A stretch of DNA of 13,326 nt, from UHGV virus genome UHGV-0203667; one strand, 5' to 3'. Position numbers and translations under genes: made by a program. Shown piece after piece: positions 1 to 13,326 of this stretch. Numbering within the stretch: the stretch's first letter is position 1; the number at the start of each line of letters is the position of its first letter. The notes under the pieces are model-generated. The model did not search any database and was not told the DNA's origin. It saw only the letters and a list, made by a program, of their open reading frames with translations. Source of the stretch: a virus.

Positions 1-531
1 ATGTTATTTCAGAAAGATAAAGAATCAGAAAACAAAAAGCTTTTTAAAGCAATAGTAAAAATGTTCTTTAAGGAGGCCGCACAGTTCGGGGCTACTATCC
101 TGCTTATTGGCCCTTGGGCAATGGCTATCTTCTTTTACCCTGCTACCTTATTTATTGGCAGTAGCAAGTTCGGCAATGGACCGTTTCATGTGGATACTGG
201 TTTTATAGATTTTCTCCTGATCCGCCCTATAAATGCTGTTCTCAATGCTTTCTACTTCCCCACTAGTCTGGAAGGGTGGGCGGTCACCTGGGGCGTTTTA
301 GGCTTAGCATTTGCAATATGGGTGATCGGCTTTTGGTGGAATGCGATCTGTGTTCTCCTTGATATCGATGGCGGAAAAAGCCGTAGAAGCGGTGGTAGCA
401 GTGGAGCAGGTATTTATGCACATGTAGGTACCAGGGGAGCTAGTGTTACCGCAGGTACCCGATTCGCTGGCGGCTGGCTGAGCATAGGCAAACGCGGCGT
501 TAGTTGGAGAAAAAGCAAAAAACTGTTCTGA
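1..531 (+). CDS. Predicted membrane protein with two hydrophobic segments and a Gly/Ser/Arg-rich basic C-terminal tail; possibly truncated at the window edge
   Basis: ORF of 176 aa starting at base 1; hydrophobic stretches (ATILLIGPWAMAIFFYPATLFIG; WAVTWGVLGLAFAIWVIGFWWNAICVLL); tail GGKSRRSGGSSGAGIY...; followed directly by an intrinsic terminator. No family recognised. Confidence 0.5.
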   Translation: MLFQKDKESENKKLFKAIVKMFFKEAAQFGATILLIGPWAMAIFFYPATLFIGSSKFGNGPFHVDTGFIDFLLIRPINAVLNAFYFPTSLEGWAVTWGVLGLAFAIWVIGFWWNAICVLLDIDGGKSRRSGGSSGAGIYAHVGTRGASVTAGTRFAGGWLSIGKRGVSWRKSKKLF

Positions 532-2903: not shown

Positions 2904-3053
2904 GTGGAAATTACAGATGTAATAGCGATCATCAACCTGGCTGTACTGTGGTGCGGTGTTGCCTACATAGCCGGAGTAACTGCAATCGACAACCTTGAAG
3001 AAAAAATGATAGATAAATACAAAAAGATTGTTGACAATCTCGCAAATAGCTGA
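2904..3053 (+). CDS. Small hydrophobic peptide (49 aa, GTG start), predicted single transmembrane helix with charged C-terminus
   Basis: SD GGAGG at 2894-2898, 5-nt spacing to GTG 2904; translation (V/M)EITDVIAIINLAVLWCGVAYIAGVTAIDNLEEKMIDKYKKIVDNLANS; stop TGA 3051-3053. Below the length cutoff of the ORF track. Overlapped by the minus-strand ORF 2868-3317, judged spurious. Confidence 0.4.
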   Translation: MEITDVIAIINLAVLWCGVAYIAGVTAIDNLEEKMIDKYKKIVDNLANS

Positions 3054-3059
3054 TAAAAT
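3031..3059 (+). promoter_or_regulatory. Near-consensus sigma70 promoter P1: TTGACA, 17-bp spacer, TAAAAT, with an A-rich upstream tract
   Basis: -35 at 3031-3036, -10 at 3054-3059; spacer contains the recurrent motif TCTCGCAAA (3038-3046); A-rich 3001-3026 resembles an UP element. Confidence 0.6.
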
Positions 3060-3065
3060 ATAAAT

Positions 3066-3141
3066 CATAGGGTAATTCTCATCATAGTGAATTTCCTTAA
3101 ACAAAAATGCGGGGGCTTGTCTTAAGTTCCCGTTTCTTTTT
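3066..3141 (+). ncRNA. Candidate ~75-nt small RNA or attenuated leader transcript, from P1 to the hairpin/U-tract at 3110-3141
   Basis: Strong promoter followed about 45 nt downstream by a 9-bp stem CGGGGGCUU / AAGUUCCCG (two G-U pairs) and UUUCUUUUU; no ORF in between. Confidence 0.3.
3110..3141 (+). terminator. Intrinsic terminator/attenuator in the leader upstream of the 3183 gene (also the likely 3' end of the small-peptide transcript)
   Basis: Stem 3110-3118 / 3124-3132, loop GUCUU, U-tract 3133-3141. Confidence 0.5.
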
Positions 3142-3411: not shown

Positions 3412-4308
3412 ATGGCAAGTAATTACGGGGAGGTTTTTAATCCCCATTTCGAACGCCTCATTCAGTACACTTTTGATAAACCAGTAGCAACAACAATTGC
3501 TAATAAAAAGACTGGAAAAACAAAAGAGCGATTTAATTTAGACCTGATAGAGGTAACAATTTATGGAAAAATGGCAGGTTTTCATTTAAACGGGCAAGAA
3601 ATATTTATCTCAGAGCAGACCTTAGCAAAAATATGTGGTGTGAGTGATAGAAAAATCATCGAATCTATCAAAACTCTGGAAAATGCCGGGCTTATTTCTA
3701 AAGAAAGCCGGAAAGGTATGTCTAACATTTACAAACTGTTAATTACTCCTTCTCAAATCTGCAAAATGTGTGATGAACAGAAGATAGAACCAATGAGTAA
3801 TGCAGGTGGTGAAGATAAACAGCCTCAGGAAGCCCCAAAACAAGCCACACAGCAAGCTAAAAAGGCTAAAGTAGTGCAATTGCCTACCCAAGACACTAAA
3901 GCGCCTCAAATTAACGCTGTTAGTGACAAGCCACGCCGGGGCCGTCCTGTGAAAGATGTAACCGATGGGGGCTGGATTGTCCTGGGTGAGAGTGAAGCTA
4001 AAGATAGAATGCGCTCACTGTGGGAAAGCAAATACAAAGGTTTAAATAAACGTTGCCCGATCCGTTTGTCAAAGATTCAGGAGGATTTTTACACCACAGA
4101 GGAGGTAATACGCCATAAAGGCAATAGAGACGGTGAAATCTGGAAACCGGAAGAATACTGGCATTTAACCAGACCTGTTTTTATTTTTGCAAATAAACTT
4201 ATTGGGATGGGATTTGAAATATTGTTAGATCAAACTTACGGAGATTATCCTGAAATATTGTGGAGAAATGTTAGAAAGAATAAAAAAGGCATTTTAGAGT
4301 TTAGATAA
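3412..4308 (+). CDS. Winged-HTH DNA-binding protein with AT-hook-like linker (KPRRGRPVK) and a C-terminal domain of unknown function; putative replication initiator or regulator
   Basis: ATG 3412 after a GGGGG SD (the track's upstream TTG at 3355 has no RBS); N-terminal wHTH-like segment FISEQTLAKICGVSDRKIIESIKTLENAGLISKE; low-complexity linker EDKQPQEAPKQATQQAKKAK; 299 aa. Confidence 0.8.
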   Translation: MASNYGEVFNPHFERLIQYTFDKPVATTIANKKTGKTKERFNLDLIEVTIYGKMAGFHLNGQEIFISEQTLAKICGVSDRKIIESIKTLENAGLISKESRKGMSNIYKLLITPSQICKMCDEQKIEPMSNAGGEDKQPQEAPKQATQQAKKAKVVQLPTQDTKAPQINAVSDKPRRGRPVKDVTDGGWIVLGESEAKDRMRSLWESKYKGLNKRCPIRLSKIQEDFYTTEEVIRHKGNRDGEIWKPEEYWHLTRPVFIFANKLIGMGFEILLDQTYGDYPEILWRNVRKNKKGILEFR

Positions 4309-4349: not shown

Positions 4350-4496
4350 ATGTATGGCGATTTTGATTATTACCTGGAAAAGGAAAAATATTTTGAAGAT
4401 GAACTATCACAACATTTTTCATATTGGGAAGAATATTGTGGTTGGTTAGCTGAAGATCCAGCAGATGAAGAAAATGATTCTGACATCCCTTATTAA
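4350..4496 (+). CDS. Small acidic, aromatic-rich protein (48 aa), hypothetical
   Basis: SD AAGGAA at 4337-4342 with 7-nt spacing to ATG 4350; MYGDFDYYLEKEKYFEDELSQHFSYWEEYCGWLAEDPADEENDSDIPY; below the track cutoff. Confidence 0.4.
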   Translation: MYGDFDYYLEKEKYFEDELSQHFSYWEEYCGWLAEDPADEENDSDIPY

Positions 4497-4587: not shown

Positions 4588-5076
4588 ATGTTCAAATCTG
4601 ATCTTTCTGATTCCCAATTTGAAAAACTGGTAGCACTGCAGAAATATCTCCCCAGTGATGATCAACCAACACGACAGGCCAAGCACTTATTAGTCGAGGG
4701 CTTTACCCCTGAATTCGTTGCGGAATACACAGGCGTTAAACTTGAGAAAGTCCAAAAACTATATGAAGAATCCTGGAATCCACGGTGTCGAGTTCCCCTC
4801 AGTGTCTATAACGAAATAGATAGAGATAGAAATGTCTTCGAAGATCGCCGCCGCAAATCTCTTTTAATGTGGAATTGCGGGATGAATATTGAAGAGATAG
4901 CAAAAGAATTAAAAGTAACCTGCTTTCATGTCTGGGGCTTGTTGAGCGACCTCCTGCCACGTAAGGAGCTTAATCAACGTTTGCCTAAGCCCGGTAGTCG
5001 TGCTTATCGCGAATTTATATTCATCTACCGCCGCCATAGAAATAAAGTCCAGAAAGCAATGGCCCAGAAAGCCTGA
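4588..5076 (+). CDS. Putative DNA-binding protein with two HTH-like segments (162 aa)
   Basis: SD GGAGA at 4576-4580, ATG 4588; HTH-like stretches LLVEGFTPEFVAEYTGVKLEKVQKLY and MWNCGMNIEEIAKELKVTCFHVWGLL; basic C-terminus. Confidence 0.75.
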   Translation: MFKSDLSDSQFEKLVALQKYLPSDDQPTRQAKHLLVEGFTPEFVAEYTGVKLEKVQKLYEESWNPRCRVPLSVYNEIDRDRNVFEDRRRKSLLMWNCGMNIEEIAKELKVTCFHVWGLLSDLLPRKELNQRLPKPGSRAYREFIFIYRRHRNKVQKAMAQKA

Positions 5077-5116
5077 GTTTTATCTCTTCGATTTATTTAT
5101 TTTCGACTCACTTTAA

Positions 5117-5159
5117 CCCCTTCCGGGGCTTGACGTTGTCAAGGCCGCAGCTATGCGGC
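5117..5159 (+). promoter_or_regulatory. Three consecutive hairpins (CCCC-ttcc-GGGG; CTTGAC-gtt-GTCAAG; GCCGCA-gcta-TGCGGC), copy 1 of a conserved structured element (copy 2 at 12577-12622)
   Basis: Read from sequence; lies 20 nt upstream of ATG 5180 in the 4588/5180 intergenic region; copy 2 keeps both stems through compensatory changes. Confidence 0.5.
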
Positions 5160-5623: not shown

Positions 5624-5683
5624 GCTATTGATAAATAAGCACTCCCCATTTTTTGGGGGGTGCATCAATGAGAGGGTATGCCT

Positions 5684-6118
5684 ATGAATATTGAAGAAAT
5701 GATAGTTGAATTCGAAGAGGGTGATTTCCTGGAAGAAGGGGAGTTTAAATACTCCCGTTTTAAACAGGCGTTATTTAGCAGCGATGATAAACCCCACGTT
5801 AGTGATCTTAACGACGATGATTTATGTCGCTGGGTATGCACCCGCTTATATGAAGATGGAAAGTATACAGGCCAAAACTTTCCAAATCTCTATTTCAAAG
5901 CACAAACATTTGAGGAAGGGCAAAGAGTGAAAAACCTGGTCGATAAAATGCTGTCAGCCGGATATTTGCATAAAGAATTATTAAATCCTAAAGCTGAAAG
6001 CAAGCGCCATTATATTTTTGTGTGGTCTGTGGGGGATAAGTGCCCACTGCATGGGAGTCCTTCCAGGACCTTAGCTAAAGCTAAGCCCGTTGGGTCTGTT
6101 AAGCGTAAAGGCAAATGA
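5684..6118 (+). CDS. Hypothetical acidic protein (144 aa), positioned like a tail assembly chaperone
   Basis: GAGAGGG SD with 7-nt spacing to ATG 5684 (the track start at 5678 is only 1 nt from the SD); acidic N-terminus; ends with basic tail KRKGK; 2 genes upstream of the tape measure gene. Confidence 0.7.
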   Translation: MNIEEMIVEFEEGDFLEEGEFKYSRFKQALFSSDDKPHVSDLNDDDLCRWVCTRLYEDGKYTGQNFPNLYFKAQTFEEGQRVKNLVDKMLSAGYLHKELLNPKAESKRHYIFVWSVGDKCPLHGSPSRTLAKAKPVGSVKRKGK

Positions 6119-6308: not shown

Positions 6309-8411
6309 ATGGCAATGAAGGAAGTCGCCAGACTAACAAACGTTATTTACTGGGACTCTGATAAATCCTCCTGGCGAAAAGAAGTTAAGCGCTTGGAGGA
6401 TTATAAAAAATCCTGGAAGAAAGCTACCGACGATATAGCTAAAGCGGATTTTAAATCTAATCAGGCTGTGCTCAGAACACAAAGAACACGCGCTAAGGTG
6501 GAAGAGCAGATCGCCAGAGCACAGAAGAAACAACGTGCTCAGGCTGTCAGCCGTCTGACCGGGGGCAATAATCCGGAGCTCTCCTCTATGCGCAAGTTCT
6601 ATCAGCAGCAAGCCAGAGAGGCCGCCAGACAACAAAAACTGTTAGATCGTAGTGTTGGAGATGTTCAGCACAGAAAAGCACGTGTAGGGGCCAACAGTGC
6701 ACGAATCAGCAGCATGTTTGATGGCTCCCTGGTTGCTCAGTTCCAATCCAGAATTCAAAGAGTTAATGCTGATTATGCTAAAGGGGCTATTAACCTGCAG
6801 ACCTATAATCAGAAAATGGCCCGACTCAGATCTGAAATGAAGATGGCAACAGCAGAGGCCGGAAAATTTCAGAGCAAACTGGATAGAGTTGCGATCACAG
6901 GATCTAAGCTGCATGACAACCTGGGGAAACTAAATTCTACTTTAGGCAAGATAGCTATTGGCCTTACTGCCGCTGGCTGGGGTGTTCAGCGTGCTGTTAG
7001 TGGTGCTATGGGTAGCCTTGCAGATCGCAACAGTGCCTACTTCGGTTTGATGGCACAGAACAAGGATGATAAAGCCAAGACTGATCAGCAGATGGCCTAC
7101 GTCAAAAGAATCTCTTATGACTACGGGATGGATCAGCGTGAGACCGAAGGCGGTTTTATGCGCTTTGCTGCAGCCACACCGAGCATAGAAGAGAAAGATA
7201 AACAGGCTCTTTTTGAGGCTATGGCTATTAAAGGTCGCTCAGTGGGTGCTACCGCAGACCAACAGAACAGGGCTATCGTTGCACTAGGGCAAATATATAG
7301 CAAGGGCGGTCGGGTGTATGCGGAAGAGCTTAAGGGCCAACTTTCTGAAGCCCTGGCAGGTTCTCAGGTAGATTTCACTAAGGCCGCTATCGATGCCGGA
7401 GTCATCAAGAAAGAGGAAGAATTTAATAAAGCCCTTGAAGATGGCAAGATCACCATGGATAAGCTTCTCCCTTCTTTGGTGAAAATCTGGTCTGCAGCCA
7501 AGAATACGAAAGCCTTTGCTGAATCCATGAAACAGCCAGAAGTAGCAATGCAGCGCATGAAAAACAGCTTTAACGAGCTGGCGATTCAGTTTATGGGTGT
7601 TGTGGATCCTGCCGATGGCGTTGTTAGCTTATCTGAATCTCTGATCTCCATCTTCGAAGACCTCACCACTGATATGGACGGCAGCGGGAGCGCGGCAAAA
7701 CAGTTTGGTGAAGCAGTCGGTGCTGCCATGCGGGAGATCATGTATTGGGTAGGCTTCGCTAAGGGATATATCGAGGTCAAGGCTAAAGAGTTCGGCATGA
7801 CCGGATCAGAGGTTGGCGAGCTTATCGGGAAACTAGTAGTCGGCTTAGCTGGTCTGAAAGTTATTACCACACTGCTTTCCCCTCTAACCGGATTTGTTTC
7901 ACTTGTCACCCAACTGATAGCCTTGTTAGGTAAAATCCCTGGTATGAGCAAGCTTATGGCATCTGCCTCAGGTGGAACGGCAACAGGAGCAGCAGTTATC
8001 AGTGCAGGCTCTAACGCTGAAAGAAGCTTCATTGATGGCAAGACGCAGGAAATGAGTAAGGAGAACTCAAAACAGGGTGCTTTGTTTGAGCTGGGAAGAT
8101 TTGTCAGCAATGCTGGCGCACTGTTCACACCTGGCGGTGATACTGGTCCTTTGTTCGATCAGGTCAAAGGCTGGTTTAATAAAGGGCCAACATTGACAGT
8201 AGACACTGGCATCAGACCAACACCAACGGGTGGCATAGCTATCCAGAATGGTGGATATCAACCAGTCCAAGTAAATGTAGCCCCACAAGGTGAGATTTCC
8301 GGCAAATGGGAGATAACCATCGATGAGGGGGGAATTGCCAGGGTGATCCAGAAGGAAGTCAGCGATCAGTTGGATTGGAAAGCCACACAGGAATCTAACC
8401 AGCTTTTCTAA
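6309..8411 (+). CDS. Phage tail tape measure protein (700 aa)
   Basis: SD GAGGTG with 7-nt spacing; charged coiled-coil-like N-terminus; motif ALGQIYSKGGRVYAEELKGQLSEALAGSQ, recalled as the conserved tape-measure motif; central hydrophobic segment (LIGKLVVGLAGLKVITTLLSPLTGFVSLVTQLIALLG); Gly-rich C-terminal part. Confidence 0.8.
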   Translation: MAMKEVARLTNVIYWDSDKSSWRKEVKRLEDYKKSWKKATDDIAKADFKSNQAVLRTQRTRAKVEEQIARAQKKQRAQAVSRLTGGNNPELSSMRKFYQQQAREAARQQKLLDRSVGDVQHRKARVGANSARISSMFDGSLVAQFQSRIQRVNADYAKGAINLQTYNQKMARLRSEMKMATAEAGKFQSKLDRVAITGSKLHDNLGKLNSTLGKIAIGLTAAGWGVQRAVSGAMGSLADRNSAYFGLMAQNKDDKAKTDQQMAYVKRISYDYGMDQRETEGGFMRFAAATPSIEEKDKQALFEAMAIKGRSVGATADQQNRAIVALGQIYSKGGRVYAEELKGQLSEALAGSQVDFTKAAIDAGVIKKEEEFNKALEDGKITMDKLLPSLVKIWSAAKNTKAFAESMKQPEVAMQRMKNSFNELAIQFMGVVDPADGVVSLSESLISIFEDLTTDMDGSGSAAKQFGEAVGAAMREIMYWVGFAKGYIEVKAKEFGMTGSEVGELIGKLVVGLAGLKVITTLLSPLTGFVSLVTQLIALLGKIPGMSKLMASASGGTATGAAVISAGSNAERSFIDGKTQEMSKENSKQGALFELGRFVSNAGALFTPGGDTGPLFDQVKGWFNKGPTLTVDTGIRPTPTGGIAIQNGGYQPVQVNVAPQGEISGKWEITIDEGGIARVIQKEVSDQLDWKATQESNQLF

Positions 8412-8423
8412 TATTGTGATCTA

Positions 8424-8439
8424 AATCAATAAGTTAGCC
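8424..8439. repeat. 16-bp direct repeat AAATCAATAAGTTAGC, copy 2 (copy 1 at 692-707)
   Basis: Exact match to 692-707; begins 13 nt after the tape-measure stop codon. Confidence 0.6.
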
Positions 8440-8462
8440 TGACCGGATAAACTCCAGGCAAG

Positions 8463-8493
8463 AAAAAAGCCCCTAAGTGTTAACAAAGGGGCT
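8463..8493 (-). terminator. Intrinsic terminator for the leftward head operon (AGCCCCT / 12-nt loop / AGGGGCT followed by UUUUUU on the minus strand)
   Basis: 7-bp stem 8468-8474 / 8487-8493; A6 on the plus strand (8463-8468) gives a U-tract on the minus-strand RNA; the plus-strand side lacks a U-tract. Confidence 0.55.
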
Positions 8494-8523
8494 CTTCTCC
8501 GGTATCCTTTTGATGCGGGGCAA

Positions 8524-8571
8524 AACCTGCTAACAAAAATCAACCTCTCGCGAGACTAATGTTAGCAGGTT
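8524..8571. repeat. Perfect 12-bp inverted repeat AACCTGCTAACA ... TGTTAGCAGGTT with 24-nt spacer containing palindrome TCTCGCGAGA
   Basis: Arms 8524-8535 and 8560-8571 are exact reverse complements; inner palindrome 8546-8555; the spacer carries a degenerate copy of the AAATCAAC(C/T)TCTCGC motif. Confidence 0.55.
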
Positions 8572-8913
8572 GCCGGAAGGTAAGTCAACTCCGGCCTATA
8601 AACCTTAAAGCGACTATAAAATTGCCCCGCCAATTGTGATGATCCGACCTTTGAGGCGGGTCCGGTGCCCAGGGGGTGCAGTGATGCACAAACCAGGCAA
8701 CGATAAACAGGCTAACAGTGATAGCGGCGCTCTCTCAGCGCACTAAATCCTAACCAGTCCGGGAAAGAGGCTGGCTCTATCGACCGCTCATGCACGGGAC
8801 AATGCATACCTGATAAAGGATTCTCACAAGGGACCAATCGCGAGAAAAGAAGTGGAAAGGGGCTGATTTGTGGTGTATCACTACGGCCTCAAAAGACACC
8901 CTATTGCCTTTTT

Positions 8914-9372
8914 TCAGCCTCTCCCCACATTTGACCAGTATTTGATTGCACCGATCAAATCATCATAGTGGCGCATTGCATCATTGAAGCCTTTATAGCT
9001 TGCCCATTGTGGGGAAACCTTGTTGTTGCTGAATTGCCCACTAATCAGGATAGTCTCCAGAATGTCGGCGTATCGCTTGCCAATTCGCTTCCTGACGGCC
9101 TCAGAGCTCCCACCCTTTACGATTGCATTAATCAGGGCTTTTGTGTGTCTCAGGCTCTCATAGAGCATTGCAGCGTGGGCAGATTCCATAAAGGAGCGCT
9201 TAGGCAGATCACCCCACCCCTCAGAATGAATTGCTGCCAATGTGGCGTAATTCAGGCCGCTATAGTGTTTCCCGTCATCCCAGCCAACCGCTACACCTTC
9301 CATCTGTGAGAGCTCTTTATGCAGCTTATCCATCATGCGCTTGTCTATGGTGCAACGGACTTTCGGACTCAT
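8914..9372 (-). CDS. Hypothetical phage virion morphogenesis / head-tail joining protein (152 aa); family not verified
   Basis: Last gene of the leftward structural operon; start ATG overlaps the stop of the upstream gene (ATGA), suggesting translational coupling. Confidence 0.7.
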   Translation of the reverse strand: MSPKVRCTIDKRMMDKLHKELSQMEGVAVGWDDGKHYSGLNYATLAAIHSEGWGDLPKRSFMESAHAAMLYESLRHTKALINAIVKGGSSEAVRKRIGKRYADILETILISGQFSNNKVSPQWASYKGFNDAMRHYDDLIGAIKYWSNVGRG

Positions 9373-10181
9373 TTGTTGATCTCCGTGATGTCATCAAGCA
9401 ACATGTTGGCCTTATCAATCATCGTTTCGTGGAACTCATTCGACACGACAGACTTATCACCTGCTGCAATCTTTCCCGCTGCCTCTCCCTGTGCATATTC
9501 CCCGCGATGCTTAGCCCTGGTTGATTTCGTAGCAGCATTGCCAGCGTTACTACCCTCTTTAGCACTGTTAACAGCACCCTTTTGCTGTGTTTTATTCACC
9601 TTCTTACTGTTAGTGAAAACTCCGGCATTTTCGACCATCTTCACCTTGAAGGTGCGGAATTCTTCAAAAGTGCAATCAATAGTGATGCAGTCGCCAGAGG
9701 AAGAGCTACGCTTAACTTCACATTTCGTCATGATGAAGTTCTCAAGGAGTCCGACATCTTCACCCACCAGGCTGATAATCTGGCGCTTGTCTCTCATTTC
9801 CATAAGTGCCTGAACAGCGGCAGCAGGGCGCATAGATTCACGGGGATTATCTGGATCAGTGTTCCGGTCGATGTAGTTCTCTTTCCGGATGATATGAGGG
9901 GAAGAGGTAATAATACCCGTAAAGCTGACAGATTTATCTTTAATGACGGCATGGTCTGACATGGTGGTGCCATCCTCGACCGCATAGCTCGATTTCTCAA
10001 CAGGGAACGAATAGCTGACATCAGAGATAGAGTCAAAGAAGATAGCCACATTATCGGTATAGTTGAAGCCATCCATCATATTTTTGTTTTGTGAATATCC
10101 CCCACACATAACAGTGAATGCAGGAGATCTCGACTCAGCTTGTTTTGCAGCTGTCAGAGCATCACTAGCCATATTAAACAT
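9369..10181 (-). CDS. Hypothetical phage structural protein (270 aa) with Lys/Ala/Gly-rich low-complexity C-terminal half
   Basis: In the head operon downstream of the major capsid gene; GGAGG lies 1 nt before ATG 10181 and 10 nt before the in-frame ATG 10172, so the true start may be 10172. Confidence 0.7.
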   Translation of the reverse strand: MFNMASDALTAAKQAESRSPAFTVMCGGYSQNKNMMDGFNYTDNVAIFFDSISDVSYSFPVEKSSYAVEDGTTMSDHAVIKDKSVSFTGIITSSPHIIRKENYIDRNTDPDNPRESMRPAAAVQALMEMRDKRQIISLVGEDVGLLENFIMTKCEVKRSSSSGDCITIDCTFEEFRTFKVKMVENAGVFTNSKKVNKTQQKGAVNSAKEGSNAGNAATKSTRAKHRGEYAQGEAAGKIAAGDKSVVSNEFHETMIDKANMLLDDITEINK

Positions 10182-10587: not shown

Positions 10588-11631
10588 TTATTTAGCCTTG
10601 GCTTTTGCCAGAGCAGCGGCGGCGGTGTTTTTAACACTCACTTTAACCACCACCTCGGGCATCATATTCATAAATGCGTATGAGCTCTCGCAAAAGACCT
10701 CGCGCTTAGCTCTTGAATCTTGCATATACATGAAAGCTTCACGTGCAGCGCCGTTTGCCAGCTGCAGATTGCGAGCGCAAGGGCCAAAAAATTGAGTATA
10801 AACACCCATATCGCCCAGTGCATAAGGCTGGAATTGTGGGACCAGATAAGCAGTATTCTCTGGCAGACTATCCATTTGCACCACACGCAGGGCTAAGCCC
10901 GGAATGCGGAAGGTCGGGAAGCCCGGCAGAATATCCTCAGGGAACATCAGACCTTTGTCGGTAATGTTCTGATTGCCGAACAACAGCACTTTACGAAGCA
11001 GCTCGTCAGTCTGAATTGCAGCAAAGAGTTCAGCACGGCAGAACAGGGTGAAACCACGCAGGGCACGAACGACACCACGCTGTTTAACCTTGCTCAGTGC
11101 AACCAGGTCCTGCAGCTGTTTAAGGATATCTTGAGCTAGATCCACTTCAGAGGTGGACTGTTCTACTCCCAGCAGTTCGCACACATTCAGTTCTTTACCC
11201 TTGGTGAGGATAATTTTGTTCTCAAAGAGAGCAAGCTGGCGTGCTTCTTCGTGGGTCTGGCGTAAGCCTTCGCCAAGCTGAATAACACGACGAGCGGTTA
11301 CAGACTCTAAATTCTCTTCGGAATCTTTGCCCGGAACACGGATACCTTGCCAGTCTGACGGGAATATGGCCGAGCTGGCGGCTGTAAAGGCCATGTCGCC
11401 CGTGCCCGTTTCACGCTCATCTGCGGTAATGGTAGCCATCTGTTCACCGTAGCGCGGATACTGACCGAAAGCGGTTTGTTTCACCCTGCGAACTTTGTCG
11501 TACTCAAATTTGAACGTCGAAGAATAGACGGTAGTATTAAACACGTTCATTGCTGAAATAATCTGGTTATCCAGCGGGATATCTTTAATCAGACCACACA
11601 GATCGCGAACTTCGAATTCTTTCTTAGCCAT
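10588..11631 (-). CDS. Major capsid protein, lambda gpE-like (347 aa)
   Basis: Perfect SD AAGGAGG 6 nt upstream of ATG 11631 (the track's longer N-terminal extension is discounted); size about 340 aa; segments recalled as resembling lambda gpE (RRVIQLGEGLRQTHEEARQLA ~ RRRIIMQNMRDEELAIAQVEE; C-terminal REAFMYMQDS...PEVVVKV ~ AREFTMIQSAP...DEFVSV); preceded by a decoration-sized gene. Confidence 0.7.
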   Translation of the reverse strand: MAKKEFEVRDLCGLIKDIPLDNQIISAMNVFNTTVYSSTFKFEYDKVRRVKQTAFGQYPRYGEQMATITADERETGTGDMAFTAASSAIFPSDWQGIRVPGKDSEENLESVTARRVIQLGEGLRQTHEEARQLALFENKIILTKGKELNVCELLGVEQSTSEVDLAQDILKQLQDLVALSKVKQRGVVRALRGFTLFCRAELFAAIQTDELLRKVLLFGNQNITDKGLMFPEDILPGFPTFRIPGLALRVVQMDSLPENTAYLVPQFQPYALGDMGVYTQFFGPCARNLQLANGAAREAFMYMQDSRAKREVFCESSYAFMNMMPEVVVKVSVKNTAAAALAKAKAK

Positions 11632-11978: not shown

Positions 11979-12458
11979 TTGATCACCTGCGATTTAAATT
12001 AACTCCCCTCAAAGGGCTCAGGTATAACCTCTCAAACCACGACAGGCTCGGGCCGAAAAGTTATGCCGGAAATCTAAAGGGGGATTGATATAAGGAGAGG
12101 GAGATAGCCCCGCACCGTCCAAGCGGGGGCTATTCCATATGGGGAAAACCAACAACAGTTGGCTGATAGTTCACTGCATGGTTACGGTTGCTAGAGAGCA
12201 CTATCACGAAAGGCACTCCCCCGAATCAGTTCAGGCTGCGGTCACATCAGCGGGGAAATACCTTTCGGGATAGCTACCCACACCGAAAACCCGCAAAAGA
12301 AAACTGTGTGGATAACTAGCCCAATAGGAGAATTAATCGACCACTCTAAGATGATCAGGGTAGTGTTATTTATAAGGCGGCACCGCTACCTGGTCGCCGT
12401 TACTTTGGAGGAAAATACGGCAAATCACCTTCGCTAAATGATTCACGGTATACTGTAT

Positions 12459-12487
12459 ATTATATCAGTATTTACTCACATTGTCAA
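12459..12487 (-). promoter_or_regulatory. Consensus sigma70 promoter P2 for the leftward head operon: TTGACA, 17-bp spacer, TATAAT on the minus strand
   Basis: Minus-strand -35 is the complement of 12482-12487 and -10 the complement of 12459-12464; 22 of 29 positions identical to P1 (3031-3059); leaves a ~470-nt untranslated leader before ATG 11978. Confidence 0.6.
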
Positions 12488-12660: not shown

Positions 12661-12757
12661 ATCTTTTGATCAATATCAATGTTTTCCTGGGATTTGCCCG
12701 GCTATAGTTCGAATCAAGGAAGGGGAGCATTGATAGCACCAAAACCGAACAAACAAA

Positions 12758-12772
12758 TCAACTTCTCGCAAA
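12758..12772 (+). promoter_or_regulatory. Conserved leader motif TCAACTTCTCGCAAA directly 5' of the SD of the 12784 gene (identical copy at 13301-13315)
   Basis: 15-nt exact repeat; both copies are followed by an SD-like sequence (AAAGGTGA / AAAGGGG); the TCTCGCAAA core also lies in the P1 spacer (3038-3046). Confidence 0.45.
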
Positions 12773-12783
12773 AGGTGATAGTT

Positions 12784-12906
12784 ATGGGTATCAAGAACAG
12801 TGCCAGCGCATGGCAAAAGGCCAGGTTTCATCACCCACACATTGTTAAGGCAATTGAGGTGGTTGGAGTGTTAGCCCTGATGTTAGCTCTGTGTGTGGAG
12901 GTGTGA
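12784..12906 (+). CDS. Small peptide (40 aa) with hydrophobic C-terminal segment, predicted membrane peptide
   Basis: SD AGGTGA at 12772-12777, 6-nt spacing to ATG 12784; MGIKNSASAWQKARFHHPHIVKAIEVVGVLALMLALCVEV; the track ORF starts earlier (12679) but has no RBS there. Confidence 0.45.
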   Translation: MGIKNSASAWQKARFHHPHIVKAIEVVGVLALMLALCVEV

Positions 12907-13008: not shown

Positions 13009-13269
13009 ATGACGGGGGCTAAAGATATCAGGAGACTGAGGGAAGAGCTGATAGCTGAAATTAAAGCTAAGGCAAAGCAAATGGAGATAGCCGCGCAAAT
13101 GGATGTAGCGGAACAGATGTACAAGATGGTTGAAGAGGGAACACCACGACAGGTTATCGCTAAAACCTTCGGTGTGGGGATCGCCACCGTGCACAGAAGG
13201 CTGAAAGCCTATGCCGACTACCACAACATTGAGAGAGGGGAGGATGGGAGATTTAAGAAGAATAAATAG
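13009..13269 (+). CDS. Small DNA-binding protein (86 aa): coiled-coil-like N-terminus plus C-terminal HTH of the Hin/resolvase or sigma region-4 type (TPRQVIAKTFGVGIATVHRRLK)
   Basis: SD GAGAGGAG before ATG 13009; preceded by a tandem-duplicated RBS-ATG unit and an 8-codon upstream ORF whose stop overlaps the start (ATGA). Confidence 0.75.
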   Translation: MTGAKDIRRLREELIAEIKAKAKQMEIAAQMDVAEQMYKMVEEGTPRQVIAKTFGVGIATVHRRLKAYADYHNIERGEDGRFKKNK

Positions 13270-13300
13270 TAGGAACAGTCCAACAGGTTATTAACTAAAT

Positions 13301-13315
13301 TCAACTTCTCGCAAA
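13301..13315 (+). promoter_or_regulatory. Second copy of leader motif TCAACTTCTCGCAAA followed by SD-like AAAGGGG; downstream gene start lies beyond the window
   Basis: Exact 15-nt match to 12758-12772, 32 nt after the stop of the 13009 gene. Confidence 0.4.
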
Positions 13316-13326
13316 GGGGTACCGTC

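Follow-up and report, generated by a model that had tools for sequence, protein, structure and literature searches.

A repeated leader motif in a 13-kb phage-like Escherichia coli plasmid is probably the footprint of a candidate small RNA and its two mRNA target sites

The window, by which we mean the whole 13,326-bp stretch of DNA analyzed here, carries a short motif that recurs just ahead of two ribosome-binding sites. We propose that the motif represents two target sites on mRNA, designated T1 and T2, and, at a third place, a small RNA gene on the opposite strand whose product pairs with both, probably in a repressive manner; on the strength of sequence comparison we put the probability of this reading at about 0.65. 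An RNA of ~90 nt would be encoded on the minus strand, at ~8552 to 8463, and may originate from a σ70 promoter of its own, from processing of the transcript of the leftward structural operon, or from the two together. Its G/U-rich seed, GCGAGAGGUUGAUUU, would pair with AAWUCAACUUCUCGC, which is C/A-rich and occurs twice in the mRNA of a rightward operon: in the 5' leader of a gene for a 40-amino-acid (aa) membrane peptide and in the intercistronic region before a variable envelope-protein gene. Repression would be the most likely effect, through blocking of 30S access or of a translational enhancer, possibly with decay of the mRNA. The proposal is built on three conserved copies of the motif, on their complementarity, and on a promoter, seed, and terminator anatomy that is found in three architectures.

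The window is 91 to 93% identical to complete circular E. coli plasmids of 13.2 to 13.7 kb. It is therefore a whole circular replicon whose end joins its start, and the motif copy at 13301 therefore precedes the gene at 1-531. The carrier is an uncharacterized 13-kb phage-like plasmid of E. coli. Its near relatives number in the hundreds, and every one of them is on an E. coli or Shigella contig of 13.2 to 14.3 kb. The family to which the capsid belongs is uncommon: 1.8 billion representatives contained 30 clusters of it. Searches elsewhere returned little. The window had no match in the phage collection, no relatives were found among species-representative genomes or in a scan of IMG/VR for the capsid protein, and the 63 matches to the motif pattern in IMG/VR were all unrelated and attributable to chance; a metagenome scan for relatives returned only close ones, and a search of the literature on this plasmid family found no relevant description. 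Genes were assigned from open reading frames (ORFs), PHROGs, Pfam, and the RefSeq annotation of relatives, as follows.

Rightward: a 49-aa ORF, a 71-aa ORF, and several unknown ORFs
3412-4308, rightward: replication initiator with an O-like/HTH_36 domain
6309-8411, rightward: tape-measure protein, 700 aa
8914-9372, leftward: tail-completion protein
9369-10181, leftward: Dit-like protein
Leftward: an 86-aa ORF and a 111-aa ORF
10588-11631, leftward: major capsid protein
12784-12906, plus strand: 40-aa membrane peptide, the first of the putatively regulated genes (ORF with conserved alleles)
13009-13269, plus strand: HTH_7 protein of 86 aa, between T1 and T2 (Pfam HTH_7, E 3.5e-6; PHROG matches)
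1-531, plus strand: variable "cargo" gene 3' of T2, encoding a 176-aa polytopic membrane protein in the window

The membrane peptide, the HTH_7 protein, and gene 1-531 make up a short rightward operon, and a terminator at 538-558 follows the cargo gene. The 40-aa peptide has a polar N-terminal half and a hydrophobic C-terminal helix, and it gave no family matches. The slot after T2 (1-531 and its equivalents in L005 to L028) is occupied by four unrelated allele classes, all of them envelope (membrane or secreted) proteins, with the motif and the Shine-Dalgarno sequence (SD) held constant: a polytopic membrane protein of 173 to 176 aa, a signal-peptide protein of 195 aa, a membrane-anchored protein of 233 to 239 aa, and a lipoprotein-like protein of 186 aa whose C-terminal domain is common to the third class. 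When the four classes were compared with PHROG, PADLOC, and Pfam, nothing exceeded the curated cutoff, the window allele giving a subthreshold Pfam match only; PHROG, PADLOC, and Pfam (at its curated cutoff) likewise yielded no match that would assign a function to the genes that follow T1 and T2.

Several other features of the replicon were recorded. About one-third of it is noncoding, including 2.3 kb (540-2870) without a convincing gene, within which positions 700-1000 are conserved at ~92 to 94% and 1800-2300 are hypervariable. Five iteron-like repeats of ~21 nt, ACYMCYGARRATTTCTCAC, lie at 2015-2322, upstream of the replication initiator gene. At 12451-12487 a perfect σ70 promoter, TTGACA-17-TATAAT with a TG extension, points leftward into the capsid operon and is followed by a conserved leader of ~480 nt; a LexA-box-like palindrome, TACTGTATATTATATCAGTA, overlaps its -10 hexamer and is intact in many relatives, has a 1-nt deletion in its left arm in others, and is absent from the L027 lineage. 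A 16-mer, AAATCAATAAGTTAGC, occurs twice on the plus strand, at 690-707 and 8424-8441, the first copy being ~150 nt past the terminator of the cargo gene and the second 13 nt past the stop of the tape-measure gene; it has AAATCAA in common with the motif. Among the relatives, L013 (NTNY01000053.1, a 30-kb contig) has an insertion at 13452-21041 that adjoins the tail-completion gene and the small-RNA region and contains aminoglycoside phosphotransferase genes, an IS transposase, and a TetR-type gene; the element is therefore able to carry resistance cargo. The "plasmid" record of L005 (NZ_CP043822.1, 39.6 kb) is a head-to-tail trimer of the 13-kb element in which one unit has frameshifts and deletions, either an assembly artifact or a true multimer.

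The 9-mer TCTCGCAAA lies at 3038, 12764, and 13307, where it had originally been placed, and the last two copies belong to an identical 15-mer, TCAACTTCTCGCAAA, at 12758-12772 and 13301-13315, just 5' of two ribosome-binding sites. The original prediction had counted exactly three copies of the 9-mer on the plus strand; we found four, the extra one at 10686-10694. Four matches compare with 0.12 expected, and 0 of 200 shuffles reached that number; the 17-mer AAATCAACYTCTCGCRA, with up to 3 mismatches allowed, gave 3 matches against 0.16 expected. Simple arithmetic, C(13326,3)/4^18, nevertheless predicts ~6 thrice-repeated 9-mers in 13 kb. A thrice-repeated 9-mer that is picked post hoc is unremarkable, and conservation is therefore what counts.

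Conservation was compared across 29 related loci (L001 to L029). The real conserved element is CAACYTCTCGC, usually AAWTCAACYTCTCGC, and it has three copies, always on the plus strand, in every locus that covers them: T1 (12759), T2 (13302), and a copy at 8541. T1 and T2 were present in 25 of 25 covering loci and the third copy in 24 of 24. The motif was absent from the distant relatives L011 (42% capsid identity) and L012 (31%). The sites on the plus strand are as follows.

12755-12769, plus strand: candidate target site T1, AAATCAACTTCTCGC, in the 5' leader of the 40-aa membrane-peptide gene; exact match
13298-13312, plus strand: candidate target site T2, AATTCAACTTCTCGC, between the stop of the HTH gene (13269) and the ATG at position 1
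3038-3046, plus strand: 9-mer copy in the spacer of promoter P1; a minority allele, not counted in the system
10686-10694, plus strand: 9-mer copy lying antisense in the capsid gene; found in the window only among the compared loci

T1 is followed by the SD AAGGTGA (12772-12778) and an ATG at 12784, and T2 is followed by the SD GGGG (13316-13319) and the ATG that forms position 1 of the circular element. In an alignment of 18 elements both sites stand out as invariant islands in indel-rich leaders, which otherwise vary by a 48-nt insertion, several deletions, and many substitutions; T2 is conserved while both of its flanks vary. The L010/L027 lineage (79% capsid identity) has the same T1 as the window and has AAATACAACCTCTCGCAAAGGAG as its T2. 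A scan of relatives, which had been suggested as a check, thus found both leader copies positionally conserved, and the possibility that the motif is part of a larger duplicated segment did not hold, the similarity between T1 and T2 stopping after ~22 nt. T1 and T2 most plausibly answer to one shared regulator acting on mRNA. To that extent the earlier claim of a shared regulator survives; its choice of a protein as the binder is not supported, as nothing points to the HTH protein or to other plasmid proteins, and we infer that the regulator is an RNA.

The two remaining 9-mer copies were ruled out as functional sites since neither is conserved in relatives. The copy in the P1 spacer, put forward at the outset as an operator, lacks positional conservation, an outcome that had been named in advance as counting against the idea: the spacer is biallelic, 5 of about 22 elements having the motif allele, ATCTCGCAAATAGYTGA, and 16 having the other, ATTTGACGAATGYCTGA, and the -35 and -10 hexamers are kept. 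The capsid-gene copy is treated as a chance match. Duplexes of the seed with the P1-spacer and capsid-gene copies reach only -15.8 and -17.4 kcal/mol, respectively. P1 itself (TTGACA-17-TAAAAT, 3031-3059) falls inside the 49-aa ORF, at its 3' end. Between this promoter and the next gene (3183) there is a terminator-like hairpin (3109-3133) that might serve as an attenuator.

The third conserved copy had been described as a degenerate copy of the motif, AAATCAACCTCTCGCGAGA, at 8537-8555, in the loop of a 12-bp inverted repeat. It does lie inside that repeat, but we do not regard it as a fourth operator, because the opposite strand has the anatomy of a regulator gene. Read on the minus strand, the copy looks like part of a small RNA gene, with a promoter, a 5' seed, and a terminator.

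8559-8588, minus strand: predicted small-RNA promoter (promoter scan 9/12 with TG)
8537-8552, minus strand: predicted seed, 5'-CGCGAGAGGUUGAUUU, at the 5' end of the small RNA; reverse complement of the "degenerate copy"
8463-8499, minus strand: predicted intrinsic terminator, GAGAAGAGCCCCUUUGUUAACACUUAGGGGCUUUUUU (fold -30.1 kcal/mol, z = -2.65)
8524-8571, minus strand: 12-bp inverted repeat flanking the seed, arms 8524-8535 and 8560-8571 (folds; longer precursor z = -5.5)

The predicted promoter reads TTGACT-18-TGcTAACAT, with the -35 hexamer TTGACT at 8588-8583, an 18-nt spacer, and the TG-extended -10 hexamer TAACAT at 8564-8559. On the same strand GCGAGAGGTTGATTT begins 7 nt 3' of the -10 hexamer, and the small RNA would start near 8552. 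The terminator sequence, GAGCCCCU...AGGGGCUUUUUU, follows ~55 nt beyond GCGAGAGGTTGATTT, giving a predicted RNA that runs from ~8552 to 8463, just beyond the stop of the tape-measure gene. In L027 the differences within the terminator are confined to loop bases. The region at 8412-8913 is 97.6 to 98.6% identical among close relatives, compared with a mean column identity of 83% for the element; because the whole region is conserved to this degree, conservation of the promoter within the main type is uninformative. A search of the whole window against all 4,227 Rfam families with cmscan (E ≤ 1) returned only a subthreshold match, to ctRNA_p42d (RF00489; 23.6 bits against a gathering threshold of 50, E 0.24), and it covers the terminator hairpin only (8458-8498, minus strand).

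Two coding explanations of the same segment were rejected. The third copy could have served as a ribosome-binding site for a 26-aa ORF on the plus strand, and this ORF is absent from L015; a 40-aa ORF on the minus strand that runs through the small RNA has an impossible SD spacing and is not kept in L015. In L012 a very basic 49-aa ORF with its own promoter and terminator (4867-5135) replaces the small-RNA module beside the tape-measure stop, and L015 has a called 49-aa ORF (5645-5794) in an enlarged intergenic region.

The point that we consider decisive for the small-RNA anatomy, as far as sequence can decide it, is the existence of two further, nonhomologous versions of the seed locus. The promoter, seed, and terminator geometry is kept in three unrelated architectures, namely, the window type, L015/L024, and L029, which have in common a -35 hexamer, a -10 hexamer, a distance of 6 to 7 nt, the seed, and the terminator, and nothing else. 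In all three, GCGAGARGUU begins 6 to 7 nt 3' of a -10 hexamer and the terminator consists of a GC-rich stem followed by U5-6. In L015/L024 the arrangement is TTGACT-17-CACACT-6-GCGAGAAGUUG (GCGAGAAGTTG), joined directly to the terminator; the predicted RNA is 46 nt long, with its first 10 nt, the 5' seed, unpaired (-17.3 kcal/mol, z = -3.2). The remainder of the L015/L024 intergenic region does not align with the small-RNA region of the window, and L015 keeps only the 11-nt core of the motif. The -10 hexamer CACACT is weak, scoring 8/12 by our own count, below the threshold of the promoter scan. L029, a relative from a metagenome, has a tail-completion protein with only 50% identity; here the arrangement is TTGACT-16-TGtTAGTAT-6-CGCGAGAGGUU (CGCGAGAGGTT), followed by a stem-loop and a strong terminator (z = -6.2), and the promoter scan score is 9/12 with TG. 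The seed locus of L029 was read and the targets of its lineage were not recovered; from its seed, CGCGAGAGGUUAUCGAUC, the leader targets are predicted to contain AACCUCUCGCG.

The inverted repeat around the seed complicates this simple picture of the transcript. The 5' arm and the -10 hexamer of the small-RNA promoter overlap, and in the fold of a read-through transcript the seed would be displayed in the ~24-nt loop of the repeat. The repeat is retained in L029 (~4375-4420), where two of its pairs have changed in a compensatory way (C-G to T-A and A-T to G-C), and the short L015 type lacks it. Its role could be that of a hairpin in read-through RNA or that of a palindromic operator. The covariation suggests that the seed may also be presented in a hairpin loop by RNA that reads through from the leftward operon, which hints that a longer transcript, and not the 90-nt primary RNA, may be the active form.

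A second, apparently structured element lies upstream of the small-RNA module on the same strand, between that module and the tail-completion gene. It is a conserved noncoding domain of ~250 nt (window 8640-8885, minus strand), found also in L029 (4085-4375), L011 (3325-3640), L015 (5845-6190), and, in reverse, L012 (4590-4880), where it is inverted relative to the capsid gene. Six helices are supported by five diverged sequences, one example of a long-range helix being CUUUUGAGGC with GCCUCAAAGG. Pairing was found in 92% of cells, compared with 39 to 52% in slid controls, and 13 pairs were changed on both sides, compared with 0 to 3; the covariation score was reached by 0 of 500 shuffles. G·U occurred in 21 cells and A·C in 2, which favors an RNA read from the minus strand. 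The domain matched no Rfam family. From this pattern of substitutions, the minus strand at this position very probably specifies a functional RNA; the small RNA may stand as a unit by itself or belong, as the 3' module, to a longer RNA.

The predicted seed forms a duplex of 15 contiguous bp with T1, including one G·U (-24.5 kcal/mol), and with T2 a duplex of 12 bp, a mismatch, and 2 bp (-21.8 kcal/mol). The background over 5,332 plasmid windows is -9.1 ± 2.8, so that T1 and T2 lie 4 to 5 standard deviations beyond it, and the next best translation-initiation region reaches -13.3. These energies are not independent evidence, because the complementarity follows by construction from the shared motif. 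At the Y position the seed G faces U (or C, in T2 of L027) and the seed A of L015 and L024 faces U; all of this variation is compatible with pairing, although a degenerate DNA motif would look alike. Strict compensatory change between seed and target was not seen among the compared loci, the one variable position being wobble compatible. Both duplexes stop 15 nt before the start codon and 2 to 3 nt before the SD; since the predicted pairing falls short of the SD, the sign of regulation is less than certain.

The same RNA-RNA pairing could accordingly act in the opposite direction, with the small RNA activating translation by opening a weak hairpin between CUUCUC and the SD. Small hairpins of CUUCU(C) with GGGG or AGGU are indeed predicted at both targets. 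They are weak (-3.4 to -8.8 kcal/mol), no better than those of shuffled sequences, and their registers differ between T1 and T2, so we regard activation as unlikely; an SD-sequestering hairpin as such was rejected on the same grounds, the folds being weak and not exceeding those of shuffles. A reading closer to the original one, in which the motif is a DNA operator through which a plasmid protein such as the 86-aa HTH_7 protein coregulates genes, strikes us as distinctly unlikely. Three conserved copies of an 11- to 17-bp sequence would suit it, as would the position of the HTH_7 gene between T1 and T2, and HTH_7 domains (the Hin/resolvase HTH) can bind asymmetric half-sites. T1 and T2, however, adjoin ribosome-binding sites rather than promoter hexamers, and none of the scanned promoters lies there; the sole copy inside a promoter, that of P1, is not conserved, and the sites are asymmetric, without dyad symmetry, and all on one strand. 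An operator also leaves unexplained why L015 should retain the 11-nt core alone and why the third copy should sit between a minus-strand promoter and terminator in three unrelated contexts. Nor does the motif behave as a promoter in its own right: when it was compared by eye with σ70, σE, σ54, T4-late, and T7-like promoters there was no conserved -10 element, and no RNA polymerase or sigma factor is encoded among the plasmid genes.

The occurrence of all copies on one strand, with T1 and T2 at a fixed 15 nt from the start codon, would fit an mRNA operator bound in plus-strand transcripts at three places by an RNA-binding protein of the plasmid, a helper phage, or the host. We judge this improbable: no RNA-binding domain was found among the plasmid proteins, the sites form no consistent local hairpin and their folds do not surpass those of shuffles (z +0.2 to +1.5), no conserved gene follows the third copy, and the minus-strand promoter and terminator would again go unexplained. 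Just as improbable, in our estimation, is the absence of any regulator, in which case the motif would be a shared leader for efficient translation initiation or a linker for recombination where modules meet, and the third copy would be a relic. Conserved boundary sequences are known in mosaic phages, and T2 lies exactly at the junction where the four unrelated cargo alleles swap; T1, on the other hand, is not at a variable junction, the 11-nt core is invariant while neighboring leader bases change, and the third copy has been retained in three sequence contexts, one of them in a lineage whose proteins have diverged by ~50%, which is not expected of a relic. Pairing of a minus-strand small RNA with T1 and T2 is the reading that we retain.

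Regulation by base-pairing small RNAs is well known, and the principle proposed here is not new. GcvB reportedly has a G/U-rich seed that recognizes C/A-rich elements upstream of the SD, with repression as the outcome. The candidate RNA resembles it in its G/U-rich seed and in C/A-rich targets that lie immediately 5' of the SD and not over the AUG; GcvB is a chromosomal, Hfq-dependent global regulator, whereas the candidate is plasmid borne and has two putative targets on its own replicon. There is also a likeness to type I toxin-antitoxin pairs such as TisB/IstR-1 and ShoB/OhsC, in which a hydrophobic peptide of ≤60 aa has a leader complementary to a small RNA. Unlike in those pairs, the RNA gene here is 4.2 kb from the peptide gene, and a second, unrelated gene has the same target site.

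Among phage-like plasmids the nearest parallels are the immunity RNAs of P4 and P1. PMC4825925 (citing Sabbattini 1995 and Briani 2000) describes the CI RNA of satellite phage P4, a small stable RNA with a short antisense element, seqB, that is complementary to seqA and seqC and controls the operon; the logic here would be the same, a single antisense element serving two complementary sites within one operon of a phage-like plasmid. CI is processed from the transcript of its own targets and works by premature transcription termination. The c4 RNA of P1/P7, encoded in immI (c4-icd-ant), is described in PMC8546580 (citing Citron and Schuster 1992) as a trans-acting small RNA of a plasmid prophage that represses downstream proteins via short complementary leader sites. 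This RNA is cotranscribed with its targets and then processed out of that transcript. Unlike CI and c4, the candidate would be transcribed from the opposite strand, and 4.2 kb separate it from T1 and T2. Its targets abut ribosome-binding sites, unlike those of CI, and the genes that it would regulate encode envelope proteins and not an antirepressor as with c4; to neither RNA is there homology in sequence or structure. The Rfam C4 and IsrK/SeqA models had no match in the whole window.

A broader and more tentative proposal, which we consider possible but doubtful, is that the small RNA is the RNA arm of a lifestyle switch in an undescribed family of phage satellites, plasmid borne and ~13 kb in size, with capsid, tape-measure, Dit-like, and tail-completion genes of their own. 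The small RNA, positioned at the 3' end of the structural ("late") operon and beside the ~250-nt structured domain, would be produced when the late operon fires and would shut off the divergent maintenance/exclusion operon of membrane peptide, HTH protein, and envelope cargo. Such a switch would amount to an RNA-based commitment circuit analogous to P4 or P1 immunity and built independently.

If the small-RNA reading is correct, it would provide a regulatory circuit, one small RNA with two target sites, for a widespread and unstudied group of E. coli and Shigella plasmids that carry phage capsid and tail genes, sometimes with resistance genes, and that are represented by hundreds of contigs. 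It would add an RNA regulator that is carried on a plasmid, acts on envelope proteins, and belongs to no Rfam family, and it would illustrate that a repeated motif resembling an operator can mark an RNA seed together with the sites that it targets. The neighboring conserved structured RNA is a further object of study in these plasmids.
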